Notes: generated by a model not told the origin, from the sequence alone. A DNA stretch of 64,000 nucleotides from a virus (IMGVR_UViG_3300025128_000017:32158-96157), one strand, 5' to 3'; counted from the stretch's first letter, positions 15,959 to 58,939 are shown. Program-made: numbers and translations.

Positions 15959-16263
15959 TCTTCCTCGCCTCCTAATTCAGCATCTAACCTAGCCAACTCT
16001 TCACGTAATGCTACTCTTCTTGCTTTCTTCTTACGCAATTCAACTATCGCTTTCATAGCAACAGGGTCATAGTCATCAGTGTTACCTTCAGTCTCAAACC
16101 AATCAAGCAAGTCATCGAACCTCGATATGATTTCAGGTGCATACCAATGTCCAAACATATTCATTGTACCTGACTCCTGTACACTACGGTAATCATCCCA
16201 CATGGCTTTCGTTACGTTTGCTAACATTCTTCTTTGTATTTCATTTTGTGTTAATCCTCTCAT
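15955..16263 (-). CDS. Hypothetical protein (SG..NMF motif, DUF5049-like)
   Basis: YRSVQESGTMNMFG; recalled similarity only. Confidence 0.5.
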   Translation of the reverse strand: MRGLTQNEIQRRMLANVTKAMWDDYRSVQESGTMNMFGHWYAPEIISRFDDLLDWFETEGNTDDYDPVAMKAIVELRKKKARRVALREELARLDAELGGEEE

Positions 16264-17204
16264 TCTTCCTCGCCCCCTAGTATCGCTGACAGTATGTAGT
16301 CAGCCGCTTTCTGTGCATCACCAAACGCTTTGTTCAATGCTTTGTCTTTATCTTTGCAAGCCTTGAGCCATGACTGTAAGTATGCTACGTTGTTAGCATT
16401 CTCTTCGGCCACCAAGTCAGGCTTGAACTCACCACCAAGAGTGAGTGTAACAATCAATGAACCAAGTTCAGCAATCAATTCCTCGTAGGCATACTCCGCC
16501 GAACCAAAGTGAGACTTGAGATTTCTATTTAGTCTTGTTGCATATCCAGTGGAGTGAACTGCCTCATGTATAGCAGTCATCACTTCACCCATGCTGTCAG
16601 TGAATGACTCATGTGGTGGTAGTACAATCTTATCGTGTACTGGTGTATAGTATGCTCTGTCGCCACCTCTTGAGTAATCAAGATTGACTTGCGATGCTAC
16701 GTATTCATCCATGTGTTCCATCATTTCTGACACAGGTACAATCTCTTCAGCATTCTCAACAACGGGTGCTACGTAGTCCTCACATTGTTCAACACAAAAC
16801 ACTTCATAGTATCTAAGTGTACGACCGTAGTGTTCTTCTTCCTCACCCTCATCATTCTTCTTAGTGTACTTAGTAGTATTGAACCACTTGATGCTTACAC
16901 CTGTACCATTCTTCAAGCCTTTGATTGACATTTTCTTAGCCATCAACTGCTTACGTGTAGCAAACCGTAGGTCAGTCCAACCATTAGTCATCGCTTCAAT
17001 CCAAAGCATGACTAGATTACCACCACGATATGATTTCTTAGACACTAGATTGGATGGCATACTACTCTTACCACCCTTCCAATGCTTACGCCAAGCCAAC
17101 TTCTCACCCTGTATCGCACCCTCTAGTTTCTGAAACCACTCATCGTTAGCAGTTTCTCTCTTCATCTTTGCATATTGTTTCTTCTGTTGTATACTCATCG
17201 TCAT
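16260..17204 (-). CDS. ardC: ArdC-like antirestriction protein (ssDNA-binding + zincin-like domain)
   Basis: P.N..S.K.YRG.N, AYY.P..D.I.LP, HEAVHSTG...RLNR, YAYEELIAELGS. Confidence 0.9.
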   Translation of the reverse strand: MTMSIQQKKQYAKMKRETANDEWFQKLEGAIQGEKLAWRKHWKGGKSSMPSNLVSKKSYRGGNLVMLWIEAMTNGWTDLRFATRKQLMAKKMSIKGLKNGTGVSIKWFNTTKYTKKNDEGEEEEHYGRTLRYYEVFCVEQCEDYVAPVVENAEEIVPVSEMMEHMDEYVASQVNLDYSRGGDRAYYTPVHDKIVLPPHESFTDSMGEVMTAIHEAVHSTGYATRLNRNLKSHFGSAEYAYEELIAELGSLIVTLTLGGEFKPDLVAEENANNVAYLQSWLKACKDKDKALNKAFGDAQKAADYILSAILGGEEE

Positions 17205-27298: not shown

Positions 27299-27447
27299 TT
27301 ATTCCAATTATTCATTATTCTATCTATAATAAAGAATAATAATATATATTGTGTATAGAAAGAATAATGAAACATTAGAAACATTAGTTGTTAATTTTCA
27401 AAACCCTTATTATGTCAACCTCTGTGGCCTTTAACAAGGTCATTACT

Positions 27448-28080
27448 ATGGTAGGAGCGAACCACGATAATCACGAGATGAGATTGACAGGACTTATTCT
27501 TGCACAATCTGCACTAATTGGTGCGGCAGTAGGAATATTTGACGCAGGTATTTGGTTGCCAGCAGGAACAACAGAAAACCATTGGGTAAACGGAATGACA
27601 TACTCAATGGGTGCTTTAGCAGTGCAAATTCTAGCATACTATTTGTTTAAAATGTTCTTTGAACAGCAAATGCAAGAAAAAGTTAGAATTTCTGAAATGC
27701 AAAGGCAAAGAGATAGTAGATATAGAGAAATGCAATACAGCCATGACCAGCGTAGACAGGATATGGAATTGAGAATGCAAGAAATGCAATTAGAAAAAGA
27801 AATTATGTGGATGCAACAAAATCCCGGTAAAGCATTTCCACAGTTTATGGATAAAACATCAAAATATAATTCTAGTAATGTTAGTGGTTTAGGGGTTGAC
27901 TATAGTAGTTCTGCAAAACCACCGCAACATATGGCAGACGTAAGTAATTCTGCTTTAACTTTAGGTATGTCAGGTAACAATCTAAAAAGTGATGTTACAC
28001 CACCAAGAAACATGGATGAAGATGGATATAGATTAAAAGCCGATGGAACTATAGACAAAAGATTCAAGAAAAAAAGGTGA
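27448..28080 (+). CDS. Two-TM membrane protein with Q/M/R-rich coiled coil
   Basis: Two hydrophobic segments, then a coiled coil and disordered tail. Confidence 0.7.
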   Translation: MVGANHDNHEMRLTGLILAQSALIGAAVGIFDAGIWLPAGTTENHWVNGMTYSMGALAVQILAYYLFKMFFEQQMQEKVRISEMQRQRDSRYREMQYSHDQRRQDMELRMQEMQLEKEIMWMQQNPGKAFPQFMDKTSKYNSSNVSGLGVDYSSSAKPPQHMADVSNSALTLGMSGNNLKSDVTPPRNMDEDGYRLKADGTIDKRFKKKR

Positions 28081-28083
28081 TGT

Positions 28084-28350
28084 GTGAAAACGATGGGGCG
28101 TATCTTCAAGACACCAAAAGACGATTCAGTTGAAGAAACACTGAGAGCCATGCACTTGGCTAACACTGTTGATAATACCTATGAGTGGGGTGTTGGATGG
28201 TTACGAACTGTTATCTTTTCAGCAATAACTGCTCTGATTATTAGTTACGTTGAATCAGTTTCTGATTTTAGATTGTGGGGTTGGACTGTTGAATGGTCTT
28301 ATGAACAGGCTAGAGATTTAGCAGACTGGCTTTATGCTAAAATTGATTGA
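28084..28350 (+). CDS. Small membrane protein
   Basis: VGWLRTVIFSAITALIISYV TM segment. Confidence 0.7.
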   Translation: MKTMGRIFKTPKDDSVEETLRAMHLANTVDNTYEWGVGWLRTVIFSAITALIISYVESVSDFRLWGWTVEWSYEQARDLADWLYAKID

Positions 28351-28362
28351 GGTGTATAAATT

Positions 28363-29076
28363 ATGATGACGGGTGGTAGCGTATTAGTAGGTGCTGCCTT
28401 ATACGGTCAAGCGTTATATAATTCTTGGAAACCTAGAAGAGTAGGAATATATGGTACTAGTATGGTTGGTAAAACTACCTTAGATAGATATATGACAACA
28501 CCGGGTGAAATGGAAGAAATTCCTGTAGATGAAAGAACTGACCATTTTAAATTAATAACTAGATATATATTACCTAAACCTACAAGAAAACGAATTAGTT
28601 ATTCCGGTGAAAAAAGAGTTGTTTATTCTTCTGATGTAGGAGGACATGATAGATTTTGGAATCTTTGGATAGATGATATGGTTGCAAGACAAGTTGAATG
28701 CGTTGTATACATGTTTGATGATAGGGCTTTTGCAGGTGGTCCTGATGGTATAGACCAATTAGCCGGATTCAAGTTTTTAGTTGATGCTTTGATAAATCGT
28801 AATTATAGGTATAGAACTCTTAAAAGTAGATTAAAGGGTAAAAGATACGCTCCTAGATTACTTATGTTAGTAGCAAATAAGGCTGATAGATTCTTTGATA
28901 AAAGTGCAGCAGATTTATGGTCACAAGGAAGAATAGGTGAACATAAAATATTTGACCCGTTTAGAGATGAGTTGATTAGATTGCAAAAAGCAAACCTACC
29001 AACAAAACGTGCTTTCATGGCAACTAGGGTAGGTTGGAACGTAGAGCCAACAATGGTAGATTTATTGACTACATGA
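28363..29076 (+). CDS. Ras/Arf-like small GTPase
   Basis: G1 GTSMVGKT, G3 DVGG(H)..F...W, G4 NKAD, G5-like MAT; hydrophobic N-terminus. Confidence 0.85.
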   Translation: MMTGGSVLVGAALYGQALYNSWKPRRVGIYGTSMVGKTTLDRYMTTPGEMEEIPVDERTDHFKLITRYILPKPTRKRISYSGEKRVVYSSDVGGHDRFWNLWIDDMVARQVECVVYMFDDRAFAGGPDGIDQLAGFKFLVDALINRNYRYRTLKSRLKGKRYAPRLLMLVANKADRFFDKSAADLWSQGRIGEHKIFDPFRDELIRLQKANLPTKRAFMATRVGWNVEPTMVDLLTT

Positions 29077-29105
29077 GTGACCTTTTTTATGTGTAACGGT
29101 GTCGG

Positions 29106-29294
29106 ATGTATATGGCGAGAGGTGCGACGAGTACTGTTTTAGTTCCAATTGGTGGAGCAAGTAAGTCACTTAGGACTACTGTGCCTATGTGGATTATTAA
29201 ACAATTTAACCTCGATGCTGGCAGTAAACTTAATTGGAGAATAGACATCGAAGGCGACGAGATGCTCATCAAAGTGTCTCCTGTGGAGAAGTGA
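29106..29294 (+). CDS. AbrB/SpoVT-like DNA-binding protein
   Basis: SLRTTVP..I..QFNL.AG.KL.W. Confidence 0.75.
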   Translation: MYMARGATSTVLVPIGGASKSLRTTVPMWIIKQFNLDAGSKLNWRIDIEGDEMLIKVSPVEK

Positions 29295-29298
29295 AAAA

Positions 29299-30330
29299 AT
29301 GGTTTTAGATATACCGGATAACATGTATCGAACACTTACCAACACACCATTACAAACACATTCTTTGTCATCGTTGAATGAGGCTGCTATGATGGCGATG
29401 GCTCAACAAGGCAATCCTCAATTTAATCAAGGAGCAATCATGGAACAAGCCACTGCACAACAACACATGCAGCAATACGGTACACAATTAAATCTTCAAG
29501 TTCCTAAAGTTAATTTTTATCCTTCTAATAATCCTGACCCACGAAAAGCAAGAAGAAAGGATATTAAACAAGCATATAAACTATTATCTCCGACAAAACG
29601 TTCTATATTCGACCCTAGAAGATGGGTAGGTAGTAAATATAGATATAATAAAGATACAGGAGTTTGTTGTATTGATGGTTGTAATGTTAAAGAATTAATA
29701 CAACATGACAATCTGTATGCTAGAATTAGTGATGAAGAAACAGGTGTAAGTCTGTGGGAACTTTACTGGACAAACCCTATCACTTCACAACCTGAAGCAT
29801 TTATTGCAAGAACCGGGGTTACTAGTGGTCGTAGATTACAAGCAACTTATTGTCCTGAACATCTACATCTTTATCATTTACTTTGTAAATGGGAAACAGA
29901 ACAAGATAAAGAAGATGAATTAAAACCATCTTATTTTAAAGATAAAGTAAACAAGGGTGTAAGTTTAGTTACTGTACCTGTTACTGCCATGCAAAGTAAA
30001 GAAACACAAATGCCTGAGTTAGTACAAAAATATGAAAACTTCTTTAAAGAAATAGAAAAAGACTCTAATAGAACTAAAGGGATTAATGTTTGGCACGTAC
30101 CAAATCCAGAAACTGGATTAAATGATATTACTATGATACAGTTTGACATGAGAATGTTCCAAAAAGAAGAAGTGCAACAACAAATTGCTGCTCAACAAGC
30201 ATTTCAAACAGTTTTAAACCAACAGGCTCAAGTTCTTAACCCCGCCACGGTAGTGCAACCACCACCTGTAACACCAGCACCGGCGGTAATACCAGTAACA
30301 GAAATACAACAAAATGAGGTGACACAATAA
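29299..30330 (+). CDS. Q-rich protein with Cys/His motifs
   Basis: CCIDGC...YCPEH; Q/P-rich ends. Confidence 0.7.
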   Translation: MVLDIPDNMYRTLTNTPLQTHSLSSLNEAAMMAMAQQGNPQFNQGAIMEQATAQQHMQQYGTQLNLQVPKVNFYPSNNPDPRKARRKDIKQAYKLLSPTKRSIFDPRRWVGSKYRYNKDTGVCCIDGCNVKELIQHDNLYARISDEETGVSLWELYWTNPITSQPEAFIARTGVTSGRRLQATYCPEHLHLYHLLCKWETEQDKEDELKPSYFKDKVNKGVSLVTVPVTAMQSKETQMPELVQKYENFFKEIEKDSNRTKGINVWHVPNPETGLNDITMIQFDMRMFQKEEVQQQIAAQQAFQTVLNQQAQVLNPATVVQPPPVTPAPAVIPVTEIQQNEVTQ

Positions 30331-30953
30331 TGGGATTATTTTCTACAACACCAGCAAGCAACAATTCATCATTTAGTTTAGGAGCACCTGTAATGAATAC
30401 TGCACCTCCTACACAACAAGGTTATCAGAATTCTTACGGTGCATCACCATTGACTGCTGGCATATTAGGTGGTGCTGGTATAACTCCGCAACAGTATGGG
30501 ATGCCCGTTGCCCCACCTTCTGAAACAGATGTTTTAGCAGCCATGTTAACAACTTTACAACCGATAGATAGATTTATTGTCAGTCAAAATATGCCTGTAT
30601 TCATAGAAATGCTTTCTAACATAACCACATTTTCTCTTCTGAATGTGTTAAAAAATGCTACTTTTAAACTAGATGAAGAGGGTAACATGTCATTAGATGT
30701 TATGTCTTTACCTAGTGATTTACAGACATTAAGTGCAGAAAATATTGTTGCACAACTAAATAGTTTACAAAACACATCCATGCAATCCATCCAATCTGCT
30801 GAACAACAAAGGATGCAAATAAAAGCAATGGCTGACCAATCGTTATTACAAGGTGCTCTTGGTGCAGCAATGCAACCCGGCGTTATGGAAAATGTTGGAC
30901 AGGCTGCTGGTGGATTTTTCAATAGAGCATTATTTGGAGGTACAATGAAATGA
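30330..30953 (+). CDS. Hypothetical protein (low-complexity ends, helical core)
   Basis: TAATG coupling, GAGGTGA RBS. Confidence 0.7.
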   Translation: MGLFSTTPASNNSSFSLGAPVMNTAPPTQQGYQNSYGASPLTAGILGGAGITPQQYGMPVAPPSETDVLAAMLTTLQPIDRFIVSQNMPVFIEMLSNITTFSLLNVLKNATFKLDEEGNMSLDVMSLPSDLQTLSAENIVAQLNSLQNTSMQSIQSAEQQRMQIKAMADQSLLQGALGAAMQPGVMENVGQAAGGFFNRALFGGTMK

Positions 30954-31195
30954 TAAATGGAGGAAGTATAACACCTAAGCCAGTTGCCGATATGACGTTA
31001 CAATTTTTTAATCCTAGACATAGCACAATTGTCGATATGATTATGATACAATTAATTGCAGCCATCATTACTAGTTTGATTATTTTAATATACAAAGGAA
31101 ATGAAATTTCACAAAATGATGCTACACTTTTCTTAGTTGGAATCTTTGCATCTTTCATTTTATTAACTACAGTGTATTCACGTATAACGAGATGA
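30950..31195 (+). CDS. Small two-TM membrane protein (holin-like topology)
   Basis: Two TM helices, basic C-terminus. Confidence 0.6.
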   Translation: MINGGSITPKPVADMTLQFFNPRHSTIVDMIMIQLIAAIITSLIILIYKGNEISQNDATLFLVGIFASFILLTTVYSRITR

Positions 31196-31249: not shown

Positions 31250-31936
31250 GTGACCGAGCGTGAGCAAGTGACAAAAAGGTCCTGTGCCTTTTGTCAACAT
31301 CCTGATAGGAATGACTTGGAAGACATGATAAGGAACGGAGAAACTTCCATAAAAACTCTCGACAAAGACATGGGTTGGAGAGCCAATACAGCAGACCGTC
31401 ATTTTAGAAATCATATGGGAGAATATCACATGGCTGCTAATCCTAGTTGTGTAATTTGCACACATCCTGAAAGAGCAGAATTTGAAAATAGGTTTTTTAC
31501 AGATGGTTCTCAATCTGATATAATAGCCAAAGAATTAGATGTTGCTGAAAATACTGTTTACCATCATATGAAACATCACTTTCAACCTTTAGTACAAAGG
31601 TCTGCTGCTACTGAAGTTGTAGTAAAAGTAGGACATGAAGTGAATGTGTTGAGAAATAATGTAGAAAAACTCAATAATAGATTAAATGATTTCTTAGATG
31701 AATCTACAGGTTATGAAGATGGTTTTGTTCGAGATGCAGTTACATTACATAAAGAAGTTAGAGAAAGCATAAAAGATTTAGTCAAGTTCAATGAAGCATG
31801 GGGTACAACCGCAGAAGGTACTCAAGTCAATCAAACAATCAATATATTGAAAGTTGAATTGGCTAAAGAAAGTCCCGATACTTGGAAACGTATCAAGGCT
31901 GAATTATTACAAAACGGAGAGATTGAAATTGAATAA
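31250..31936 (+). CDS. Tandem Zn/HTH protein, candidate terminase small subunit
   Basis: Two CxxCxHP.R...H...H units plus coiled coil and QVNQTINI tail. Confidence 0.5.
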   Translation: MTEREQVTKRSCAFCQHPDRNDLEDMIRNGETSIKTLDKDMGWRANTADRHFRNHMGEYHMAANPSCVICTHPERAEFENRFFTDGSQSDIIAKELDVAENTVYHHMKHHFQPLVQRSAATEVVVKVGHEVNVLRNNVEKLNNRLNDFLDESTGYEDGFVRDAVTLHKEVRESIKDLVKFNEAWGTTAEGTQVNQTINILKVELAKESPDTWKRIKAELLQNGEIEIE

Positions 31937-32345
31937 TCAATTAGTTTCTGTTAGTGATTTGATGCAAATTACTCATCCGGGTCATAGATTTTTAATTTCC
32001 GATTATGATATTAAAGAAAACGATTTACCTATGTTTTTAGATTATTGCGTTGTTGTTTATGGGCGTTTTAAACACTACGCTGAAAATAATAATAATCTAC
32101 AAATTTCAGATAAAAGTTTGTATGACATTATGCAAGACTTGAAAAAAATGAGAGAAACGGATGAACCTTCTGAAATACATATACTCAGACAATCATTAAA
32201 AGGCGGTCTAATGGAATTTAGAAAAATTTGTAAATCGATGAGTGCTTGTTTTTCTTCTCCTTTGGTTGTTAAATCGTTCTATGATGCTTTAGGTGATAGA
32301 TTAACAGAACAAATTGTAATTTATGCGGGGATTGAATATGAGTAA
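31929..32345 (+). CDS. Hypothetical protein
   Basis: Helical ORF; start (TTG) uncertain. Confidence 0.6.
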   Translation: MNNQLVSVSDLMQITHPGHRFLISDYDIKENDLPMFLDYCVVVYGRFKHYAENNNNLQISDKSLYDIMQDLKKMRETDEPSEIHILRQSLKGGLMEFRKICKSMSACFSSPLVVKSFYDALGDRLTEQIVIYAGIEYE

Positions 32346-38358: not shown

Positions 38359-39528
38359 ATGAAAATAGAAGTAGGTGGTCTTAGTATGCAGATGTTTGCA
38401 GATAACGGCGAAGGGTGGTTTGAAACACACTTAGGTTGTACAGCATCTGATTTTGTTGGTAGATTAAAAAAAGCAAGAAGGCATAATAAACATTCAAAAG
38501 AAGAAATCGATGGTATGATAAACGATGTTAGAATGTTAAAAGCATTGGAAGTAAGAGGTACATTAGAATCTGTTTCATGGTGCGAAGGTTATGAAAATGT
38601 TATACATAAATTTGGATTGAGTGATAGAGATTTAAAATCACTTAGAAAATTTGGCGATACAAGAAAGGCTAGTTTAATTCGTGCATGTAATCAATGGCAA
38701 GAAGCAGATGAATTACTTTCTAAACTCGATGAACATGTAGAAGTTTGGGGTAAAGAAGAAGAAATGGCTTGGGTGCAAGCGATGAATATCAGAAAAGATG
38801 CTAAAAAATTATGGAAAACTACATTGCATCAAATGGATAAGTTAACTGAAAAAGAAACAGATGCTTTGATAAAAAGTGCGGAGTTACTCACAGAAAGAGG
38901 TTCAATGTCAGGTAGAGGACTTTTTGAAAATTTATCTGATGCTAAAATATTACACAAAAGTATGACACCAATGAAATTATCAAAACTAATCAGTGTTTAT
39001 GGTGAAGAAGTTGACATAATTGCAGGAGGTAAAAGAGGAACTTTTGTCAAAATGGATAAGTCAGGTTTAATATTGAAAGACCCGTATGCATATGCGGCAG
39101 GATTTTTAGATGCTGATGGTTATATTTCTATAACTAAAAGAGGAGAGCCAAGAGCAGGATTTGTTGCTACAGGTTCAAGAGGTAAAATTCATTGCGAGCA
39201 GTTACAAAAAACATTAGGTTGTGGTGTTTTACAACTAGACCAAAAAATATACAAAGATAGTCAAAGAAGTCAGCATCGTTTACAATTTTATTCTAAAAGT
39301 GACATTCGTAAATTATTAACTCAAATACTCCCACATTTAAAAATGAAAGATTTACAAGCCAAAGCGGTACTTGCTTTTATCGATGAAACTGATAGTGTGA
39401 GAAAAGAAGAGTTACAAAAATTAGTTAAATACAGCAATTGGAGTGATGATACTATTAAGGCAAGTGACCTTTTAACAGAATGGGGTGTCGCTTCTGACGA
39501 TATCGCCAAGTGGAAGGAGGGATTATAG
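38359..39528 (+). CDS. LAGLIDADG-domain protein with long N-terminal extension
   Basis: YAAGFLDADGYISIT...LPHL..K..QA. Confidence 0.8.
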   Translation: MKIEVGGLSMQMFADNGEGWFETHLGCTASDFVGRLKKARRHNKHSKEEIDGMINDVRMLKALEVRGTLESVSWCEGYENVIHKFGLSDRDLKSLRKFGDTRKASLIRACNQWQEADELLSKLDEHVEVWGKEEEMAWVQAMNIRKDAKKLWKTTLHQMDKLTEKETDALIKSAELLTERGSMSGRGLFENLSDAKILHKSMTPMKLSKLISVYGEEVDIIAGGKRGTFVKMDKSGLILKDPYAYAAGFLDADGYISITKRGEPRAGFVATGSRGKIHCEQLQKTLGCGVLQLDQKIYKDSQRSQHRLQFYSKSDIRKLLTQILPHLKMKDLQAKAVLAFIDETDSVRKEELQKLVKYSNWSDDTIKASDLLTEWGVASDDIAKWKEGL

Positions 39529-58402: not shown

Positions 58403-58939
58403 ATGTTAACGGCTATACAAAAAGTAAGATATTATCGAAAACACGGCAAACGTGCTTACATAAATTGGATTCATAAAAATGACTATTCAACTGTCGATTT
58501 GACTAAAAATAAATTTAATTTCTTAATGTCACAACCTAGTAGAAAATCAATTGATAGAGAATTATTTCTTATGTTGACTGCACCTGCTTGGGTCACAGCG
58601 GCAGAAGATGTTCTTTCAGAAGAAGTAGAAGAAGTAGAAGAAGTCATAGATTCACCTTTTTCTGTAGATATCGATTATAATTCTATGACAATACGTGAAC
58701 TGCAAGATATATGCAGAGAACGTGGACTAACAATTCGAGGTACAAAAGCCCAAGTCGTTCTTAGACTAAAGAGAGATGATGAAGGTATTACCGAAGAAAC
58801 ACAACCACATGATGAAACCGAAGCCCCCTCGGAAGAGGCTGTTGAGGAATCATCGGATGCCCCCGCTGAAGCGGCTGTAAACGAGGAAGTGAACAATAAT
58901 GATAGTGGACAAGAACCAAATATTGACGAAGAAGAATAA
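58403..58939 (+). CDS. SAP-domain protein
   Basis: YNSMTIRELQDICRERGLTIRGTKAQVVLRL. Confidence 0.8.
   Translation: MLTAIQKVRYYRKHGKRAYINWIHKNDYSTVDLTKNKFNFLMSQPSRKSIDRELFLMLTAPAWVTAAEDVLSEEVEEVEEVIDSPFSVDIDYNSMTIRELQDICRERGLTIRGTKAQVVLRLKRDDEGITEETQPHDETEAPSEEAVEESSDAPAEAAVNEEVNNNDSGQEPNIDEEE

Follow-up and report, generated by a model that had tools for sequence, protein, structure and literature searches.

The window analysed in this study is a 64,000-nucleotide stretch of a viral record (IMGVR_UViG_3300025128_000017, positions 32158 to 96157), on the plus strand of which seven consecutive open reading frames (ORFs), here called genes A to G, are tightly packed between 27388 and 31195. The central gene, C, encodes a small GTPase, and it is accompanied by genes for membrane proteins. 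Together these genes very probably form a membrane-acting, Arf-like switch cassette, for which egress or late membrane remodelling is put forward, tentatively and by analogy, as the most likely purpose. The first-pass annotation of this DNA had listed the same seven ORFs, and their order, positions and strand were all confirmed. The features are as follows, the spacer having been read directly from the sequence.

27299..27411, no strand: AT-rich spacer with TATA-like runs, upstream of gene A
27448..28080 (open from TTG 27388), + strand: gene A, 210-230 amino acids (aa), hairpin of two transmembrane (TM) segments, cytoplasmic Arg/Gln/Glu-rich coiled-coil-like stalk and short conserved C-terminal motif
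28084..28350, + strand: gene B, 88 aa, single-pass membrane protein
28363..29076, + strand: gene C, 237 aa, very divergent Arf/Sar-like small GTPase
29106..29294, + strand: gene D, 62 aa, putative SpoVT/AbrB (MazE-type) domain protein
29299..30330, + strand: gene E, 343 aa, Q-rich N-terminus, basic helix, Cys/His core, second conserved domain and Q/P-rich tail
30330..30953, + strand: gene F, 207 aa, acidic, Q/N-rich helical protein
30950..31195, + strand: gene G, 81 aa, 2-TM protein, holin-like in size, C-terminus short and basic

Magroviruses (Magrovirales) are tailed viruses assigned to Marine Group II archaea, with a halovirus-like HK97 capsid of about 33% identity, a genome of about 90-100 kb and a head-tail module, and an SNF2 helicase and a thermosome are typical of their group A (PMC5434244). 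In this study, the capsid protein of the window was 32-34% identical to those of the haloviruses HCTV-5, HVTV-1 and HCTV-1, and the record measured 96,157 bp. Downstream of the cassette lay genes for a T4-type large terminase, a LAGLIDADG protein, a portal, an S78 prohead protease, an HK97-type capsid protein and a tail tube, and upstream, on the opposite strand, were found an SNF2 helicase and an ArdC-like protein. Since capsid identity, record size, head-tail genes and SNF2 helicase fit the published hallmarks, the window is, judged from its gene content, a group-A-like magrovirus. A Ras/Arf-like GTPase inside a membrane-protein module had been called unusual for a tailed archaeal virus, and this was upheld by structural neighbours and by the literature: among the viral structures of BFVD the only neighbours of the GTPase were Ras, Rab and Ran proteins of giant eukaryotic viruses, the magrovirus literature searched held no mention of a GTPase, and broader searching gave no Arf-like GTPase of an archaeal virus. 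The GTPase cassette itself is undescribed in the literature searched.

The GTPase encoded by gene C

The G motifs of the GTPase were found in canonical order, comprising G1 (GTSMVGKT), G3 (DVGGH), G4 (NKAD) and a G5-like ATR/SAK. That G1, G3 and G4 are intact, as the first-pass annotation had stated, was confirmed, and these motifs were conserved across the five lineages described below, in which nearly every GTPase copy carried NKxD. Moreover, switch II was of the Arf/Sar type, in which DxGG(Q/H) is followed by a conserved Trp. The residue after DxGG was His in the window copy, as it is in Sar1, and Gln or Glu in the relatives.

Sequence libraries gave few leads. Gene C alone had no match in Pfam (E ≤0.1), PHROG, NCBIfam models or PDB sequences, and the only library hint was a score of 12 bits to TIGR00231. 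More than 500 close homologues were present in marine metagenomes, some of which IMG labels 'GTPase SAR1 family protein'. An exhaustive profile search of 1.84 billion representative proteins returned only 82 clusters, many of them fragments and otherwise the divergent full-length members of the family itself, and no canonical cellular GTPase was reached from the viral profile at E <1e-3. In addition, the GTPase, E and F had no tblastn match in 50,697 GenBank phage records, no related loci were recovered when the divergent GTPases P0159 and P0158 served as queries, and an alignment of distant members lacked any conserved stretch suitable for searching. The Pfam Arf model, PF00025, had no match in the genome at E ≤0.01, yet it had matches in 13 control genomes. 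Because the curated model gave no match, gene C was assigned not to the curated Arf family but to a new family of its own, very divergent, in the Arf/Sar/SR-beta branch.

A first structural model of the GTPase, built from a shallow alignment, was poor (predicted local distance difference test score, pLDDT, 60.8) and was replaced after members at 25-58% identity had been added. The AlphaFold2 model from this diverse alignment reached a pLDDT of 90.0 and a predicted template modelling score of 0.86. A Foldseek search of the PDB with this model gave at least 500 matches, of which the best were all small GTPases, with a top E of about 1e-8. VIA-align, which is independent of Foldseek, placed Arf6 (Z 17.6/17.4), Sar1 (17.1), SR-beta (16.5), a Rag-like Asgard protein (15.9) and Arl2 (15.7) at the top, and Rab and Ras ranked below (Z ≤15.3; mimivirus Rab, Z 14.6). 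The six-stranded G-domain fold was thus supported by the model, by Foldseek and by VIA-align. When the family profile was compared with PDB sequences, the best match was GerdArfR1 (E 1.5e-7), an ArfR of Asgard archaea (PDB 8OUN/8OUM; bioRxiv 10.1101/2024.02.28.582541), and the alignment spanned the N-terminal helix; Arl8 (E 6e-5) and Arl10 (about 1e-4) came next, followed by Rab33 and KRas. Modelled structure and profile make gene C lean to the Arf/Sar1/SR-beta clade, a lean and not a proof, as the Arf/Sar margin over Rab and Rag proteins was just 1-2 Z units.

The GTPase is distinguished by two basic insertions, both of them conserved (at about residues 46-73 and 143-165), and a helix rich in Gly, Ala, Leu and Val is predicted at its N-terminus (residues 4-22), followed by a basic KPRR stretch. 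A link to the membrane is suggested by the GTPase, with its hydrophobic helix followed by basic residues and an isoelectric point (pI) of 9.7, and by the cassette as a whole, three of its seven genes encoding membrane proteins. The helix could act as an in-plane anchor, pair with the TM segment of a partner or serve as a switch helix of the Arf type. The idea that B and the GTPase yield a fused or read-through product was also considered and rejected: one database ORF of 303 aa joins both, but of 68 distinct junctions only 32 keep the two genes in a shared frame, fused forms of greater length did not turn up, and the fusion was judged incidental.

Conservation of the cassette and its partner proteins

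The median pairwise ratio of nonsynonymous to synonymous substitution rates (dN/dS) was 0.06-0.33 across all seven genes (A 0.095, B 0.17, C 0.12, E 0.058, F 0.16 and G 0.11), and for this reason the genes are regarded as real and under purifying selection. In the relatives, the gaps between neighbouring genes of the cassette had medians of -4 to +28 nt. Gene A has alternative ATG starts at 27412 and 27448. The spacer upstream of it (27299..27411) may be the promoter of the cassette, and similar AT-rich spacers occurred upstream of A in some relatives, not all. A shared promoter 10-mer upstream of A was rejected, as it was not enriched in the window (16 copies against 17 expected), and so was an oligo-T terminator after G, which only 23 of 66 distinct spacers possess.

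The close relatives comprised 80 IMG/VR loci whose GTPase was 69-99% identical to that of the window. In all 80, the order A-B-C-(D)-E-F-G-H-(I)-J-K was invariant; C, E, F, G, H and J were present in every locus, A and B in 79 and D in 72, and C was the best conserved. Conservation of synteny among relatives had been set beforehand as a check, and the module was kept in the 80 close loci and its five-gene core in four further lineages. The five lineages are labelled g1 to g5, and the core A-B-C-E-F recurs in the four further ones with different neighbours, as listed below with the identity of each GTPase to that of the window.

Lineage g3, 37%: same place as in the window, upstream of helix-turn-helix (HTH)/terminase genes; G present, D absent
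Lineage g2, 31%: flanked on one side by the capsid gene with three small genes and on the other by the tail genes; D and G absent
Lineage g4, 35%: directly after a thermosome gene
Lineage g5, 37%: preceded by genes for two glycosyltransferases and an additional membrane protein; one more gene in front of the GTPase, a G-like gene behind F, a serine recombinase in the vicinity

Homology of A, E, F and G across the lineages was recognized by hidden Markov model (HMM) or profile-profile comparison at E 1e-46 to 3e-4, against ≥4e-3 for the controls. As the order of the core is kept while the neighbours change in five lineages, the unit is, in terms of gene order, a mobile five-gene block A-B-C-E-F to which G and D are lineage-specific add-ons. 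The cassette had originally been placed between the cargo genes and the packaging genes; this location held for the window lineage and one other only, and not elsewhere.

The g4 lineage deserves particular attention. Its 110,123-bp record (G001, locus L168, cassette at L168:6832-10274) also encodes a family-B DNA polymerase and a thermosome, and this record, which is 79% complete, gave no match to magrovirus capsid or portal proteins, nor to Phage_portal, Peptidase_S78 or Terminase_6C of Pfam. As controls, the searches for capsid, Pfam portal and S78 protease were positive in complete or near-complete records of g1, g2 and g3. A missing morphogenetic block could sit at an end of the incomplete record. 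In the 'group D' magrovirus elements, no morphogenetic block has been found (PMC5434244), and the g4 element resembles them, head-tail genes being undetected in both and the g4 record being 79% complete. If the lack of head-tail genes in g4 holds, the cassette does not depend on head-tail assembly. A SWIB domain protein is encoded downstream of the g4 cassette (L165:14386-14679). In g5 (contig MDSV01000266.1, 80,994 bp; L191:1822-10532), a double GT4/GT1 and a GT2 glycosyltransferase and an extra protein with 2-3 TM segments precede the cassette, and the additional gene between B and the GTPase encodes 250-260 aa. Furthermore, three short contigs with the cassette (L161, L162 and L163; 8-16 kb) were binned into unrelated metagenome-assembled genomes labelled Maricaulis, Promethearchaeati and Parvibaculum; this binning almost certainly reflects contamination with magrovirus DNA and is no evidence of hosts.

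TM segments were assigned by Kyte-Doolittle hydropathy with a 19-aa window. Protein A had one strong segment (1.93) and, in 55 of 72 homologues, a weaker second one (about 1.2-1.4); its TM part is followed by a helical stretch of about 55 residues rich in Arg, Gln and Glu. Its C-terminus (window 27950-28080) consists of a variable low-complexity linker and then a highly conserved Lys-Lys-Asp-Gly-Thr-Pro-Asp-x-Arg-Tyr, a candidate docking peptide. Protein B had one TM segment, recovered in 78 of 79 homologues at a threshold of 1.2, and protein G had two strong ones (2.55 and 2.11), with two in 77 of 80 homologues. The TM counts first given for A, B and G (two, one and two) therefore agreed with hydropathy and with the homologues, the second segment of A being the weaker. 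In the family alignment of B, the N-terminal 35 or so residues were better conserved than the TM helix, and 23 columns were invariant. By HMM, homologues of A were found in g3, g4 and g5 (E 2e-5 to 8e-12); B matched weakly in g3 (0.003) and g5 (2.6e-4), and a protein of equal size, topology and position is present in g2 and g4. G matched in g3 (5e-10) and g5 (9e-8) and had no match in g2 or g4, so that it is found in three of the five lineages. A, B and G form the main membrane-protein cluster on the late strand of the 96-kb genome.

For the AbrB-like call of D, 10 of 13 homologues matched PF04014 at E ≤0.01 (best 7e-6), but the window copy itself fell below the cut-off (E 7e-5; 23.1 bits against 24.7). 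D is absent from the four further lineages. Protein E, with more than 1000 homologues, all unnamed, had no match in Pfam, PHROG, the PDB or phage records. It had first been described as Q/P-rich; its ends are indeed Q-rich, but its core holds C123, G127, C185 and H188, invariant across two lineages. This pattern of Cys, Cys and Cys-x-x-His marks it as a putative zinc-type protein, because the positions are invariant across lineages, and its unnamed family is distinct from that of ArvC. E was recognized by HMM in g3 (6e-46), g4 (3e-45), g5 (1e-36) and g2 (0.002; hhalign 3e-4). A strongly conserved basic helix of E (residues about 88-104; window 29560-29610), ending Leu-Leu-x-Pro-x-Lys, occurs in all five lineages and may serve as an independent site of binding or processing.

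In protein F (pI 4.4), the N-terminus and a helical domain are conserved, a low-complexity region rich in Q, N and G lies between them, and the C-terminus is Gly-rich; F belongs to no known family in Pfam, PHROG, PDB sequences or phage records, and its HMM or hhalign matches were to g3 (2e-24), g5 (7e-5) and g2 (3e-4). The start of F reads Met-Gly-(Leu/Trp)-Phe in four lineages (window 30330-30345; homologues in L088, L170 and L168), which superficially resembles an N-myristoylation site, a modification that archaea are not known to use. For E and F, the ESM Atlas returned only chance-level scores (≤0.83), and profiles of E, F and D found nothing below E 0.2 among PDB sequences.

Some neighbours and more distant genes of the window were also noted. 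Directly 3' of the cassette, protein H (window 31250-31936) contains two Cys-x-x-Cys...His-Pro pairs and an HTH (HTH_20/GerE-type, sub-threshold), is conserved in lineage g3 as well as in all 80 close loci, and could be either a late regulator or the small subunit of the terminase. The LAGLIDADG-type homing endonuclease gene (38359-39528) lies between the large terminase and the portal and was recognized weakly (E 0.002). In the early region, an anti-restriction type protein on the minus strand (16260-17204) combines ArdC-N with a zincin-like MPTase-PolyVal domain, and among the tail genes, a protein at 58403-58939 carries a SAP DNA-binding domain (E 4.7e-11).

The role of the cassette and its rivals

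Magroviruses are among the most abundant viruses of the surface ocean. The exit of tailed archaeal viruses is an acknowledged open question, their egress machinery being completely uncharacterised (PMC10791045). In archaea, the Arf-like GTPase ArvA, with a zinc-ribbon partner, drives vesicle formation (PMC10927574). The proposal that the present cassette serves egress or late membrane remodelling draws together the type of the GTPase, the membrane genes, the inheritance as a block, the late strand, the lack of a cargo tag and the lack of other lysis genes in the late ORFs scanned. With respect to the strand, the cassette shares the late strand with all structural genes and lies outside the early region. 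The cargo tag is a shared helix ending Leu-Lys, for which a position-specific scoring matrix was derived from 12 copies in the window. The statement that the module proteins lack this tag was verified, as their best site scored 1.6 against at least 6.0 for real tags that had been left out, and because of this lack the cassette is not considered virion cargo. The tag-like basic helix of E was examined as a candidate and failed the matrix, scoring -3.4 (best homologue 4.4). The absence of an endolysin likewise stood, since Pfam revealed none in any late ORF scanned. Furthermore, no holin or lysin family was found for the module proteins in Pfam, PHROGs or NCBIfam, or for the other late ORFs in Pfam.

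A possible sequence of events can be outlined by analogy. Late in infection, A and B would reside in the cytoplasmic membrane of the host and recruit or activate the GTPase, the docking site being either the motif that ends A or the conserved N-terminal part of B on the cytoplasmic side, in parallel with the action of Sec12 on Sar1. Binding of GTP would expose the hydrophobic N-terminal helix of the GTPase, and the two basic insertions would then grip the anionic membrane. The GTP form would engage E, as a zinc-finger GTPase-activating protein or effector comparable to ArfGAP, Sec23 or ArvC, together with F, which may act as a multimerising, low-complexity effector. The combined action would be a local deformation, or a weakening or rupture, of the membrane, to which G would add a holin-like pore or timing function in the window lineage. 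The end result would be a timed escape of tailed virions from a host cell that lacks a murein wall. Since G has no match in two lineages and D is absent from four, neither is regarded as essential to the core mechanism.

Several points weigh against this proposal. The residue supposed to be catalytic varies between Gln, Glu and His, and GTP hydrolysis may therefore be unconventional. The N-terminus of the GTPase, which the first-pass annotation had called hydrophobic, is so, but its maximum hydropathy of 1.04 lies under the TM threshold, and with a hydrophobic moment of 0.08-0.24 and a uniform mean hydrophobicity it is weakly amphipathic. None of the module proteins matched the holin, endolysin, PVAP, ArvB or ArvC families, and G and D are missing from some lineages as stated above. 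Membrane binding, GTP hydrolysis and protein contacts of the cassette are predictions, and the host, on which timing and phenotype depend, is uncultivated. In three lineages, moreover, the cassette lies inside or beside the morphogenetic block, a location that fits a role in assembly equally well. The roles initially suggested, namely lysis, budding or the anchoring of an assembly site, are argued from context and analogy. Nevertheless, an Arf/Sar-type GTPase with its membrane proteins offers a concrete and testable set of proteins although the host is uncultivated.

The location beside structural genes leads to the first alternative, a membrane-bound platform for assembly or packaging. Here the GTPase, anchored via A and B, would mark the site of procapsid, terminase or tail assembly, and E and F would be adaptors or scaffolds, an arrangement resembling that of phage T4, whose prohead assembly is initiated at the membrane (gp20 with gp40). 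Such a platform would agree with the position of the cassette immediately 5' of the genes for HTH protein, tagged proteins and large terminase in the window lineage and g3, with its position between capsid gene and tail genes in g2, and with the late strand that it has in common with all structural genes. However, it is the internal order that is kept while the neighbours change, and two lineages adjoin a thermosome gene or glycosyltransferases and not structural genes. The 110-kb element of g4, in a record 79% complete, has the cassette and gave no match in the searches for major capsid, portal, S78 protease and Terminase_6C; the GTPase is missing from the related haloviruses that share the capsid type, and no module protein bears the cargo tag. 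On balance, an assembly platform appears unlikely.

Vesicle budding in place of lysis would be a viral counterpart of the logic of ArvA or COPII, in which the vesicles could carry virus DNA or capsid-less relatives, serve as decoys or shed receptors. This possibility, which we consider rather improbable, gains from the resemblance to ArvA and ArvC, an Arf/Sar-type GTPase likewise having a zinc-protein neighbour (PMC10927574), and from the finding of the cassette both in the 110-kb magrovirus-related element, where head-tail hallmark genes were not detected, and in a lineage flanked by glycosyltransferases and a recombinase. On the other side, there was no match to ArvB (DUF2073) or ArvC (DUF2072), no cellular GTPase was found by the viral profile at E <1e-3 among the 1.84 billion representatives, the capsid-less record is incomplete, and most of the carriers are tailed viruses of the ordinary kind, with no need of an envelope. 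In its boldest form, the five-gene core would be a self-sufficient budding or scission machine owned by the virus, a counterpart of COPII and ArvA with an Arf/Sar-type switch, receptors of its own and a zinc-finger regulator, by which tailed magroviruses would open or shed the membrane at release and large related elements whose capsid genes went undetected would travel in vesicles; this is a long shot. Least probable is a role in host take-over, superinfection exclusion or counter-defence, with the GTPase and its membrane partners altering the envelope or transport of the host or blocking competing viruses: small membrane proteins are common as superinfection-exclusion factors and the g5 glycosyltransferases beside the cassette could modify the surface, but the cassette lies on the late structural strand and not in the early region, PADLOC gave no credible defence-system match (a single weak hit of F was about chance level), and the core block is deeply conserved whereas exclusion genes usually turn over fast.

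Comparison with known systems

The viral GTPase shares with Arf1/Arf6, Arl8, Sar1 and ArfR the fold, the type of switch II and an N-terminal helix before the G domain. In contrast to the Arf family, with which its identity is 14-18%, it is about 50 residues longer and carries two extra conserved basic insertions. Its N-terminal helix aligns with that of GerdArfR1, but is Gly/Ala-rich and weakly amphipathic in comparison with Arf. It is also the gene of a tailed virus with fixed membrane-protein neighbours and has no cellular relative detectable by sequence. Gene C would add a deeply divergent branch to the Arf/Sar clade outside eukaryotes and Asgard archaea, a point that bears on the age of membrane-directed GTPase switches.

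SR-beta has a hydrophobic helix at its N-terminus as a membrane anchor, and it tethers its partner in a manner that depends on GTP. It belongs to the same clade (Z 16.5) and is the closest analogue for a GTPase that is anchored rather than cycling. The viral protein differs from it by an N-terminal helix below the TM threshold, by the lack of an SR-alpha-like partner and by an unrelated biological context.

The cassette may also be compared with the holin-endolysin(-spanin) cassettes of phages, which are, as here, compact, late and rich in small membrane proteins, and whose position varies among relatives; protein G is like a class-II holin in size and topology. Unlike these, the present cassette has no endolysin and no holin family match, and G is absent from two lineages, whereas the known lysis cassettes have no counterpart of the GTPase. 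In the ArvA-ArvB-ArvC operon of Haloferax volcanii, an Arf-like GTPase with an N-terminal helix stands beside a zinc-type protein and acts on the cytoplasmic membrane, as is proposed for the cassette (PMC10927574). The two differ in that no DUF2073/DUF2072 match was found (nine proteins, Pfam E ≤0.1), and integral membrane partners are present in the cassette and not in the Arv operon.

Finally, the Ras, Rab and Ran proteins of giant viruses (e.g. mimivirus Rab, PDB 5XC5) are, like the product of gene C, small GTPases encoded by viruses. Those proteins are recent captures from the hosts of eukaryote viruses, whereas the GTPase described here is an Arf/Sar-type protein for which a cellular donor is not recognisable, and it is set in a fixed membrane cassette. 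These findings extend virus-encoded small GTPases from giant eukaryotic viruses to a tailed virus of prokaryotes.

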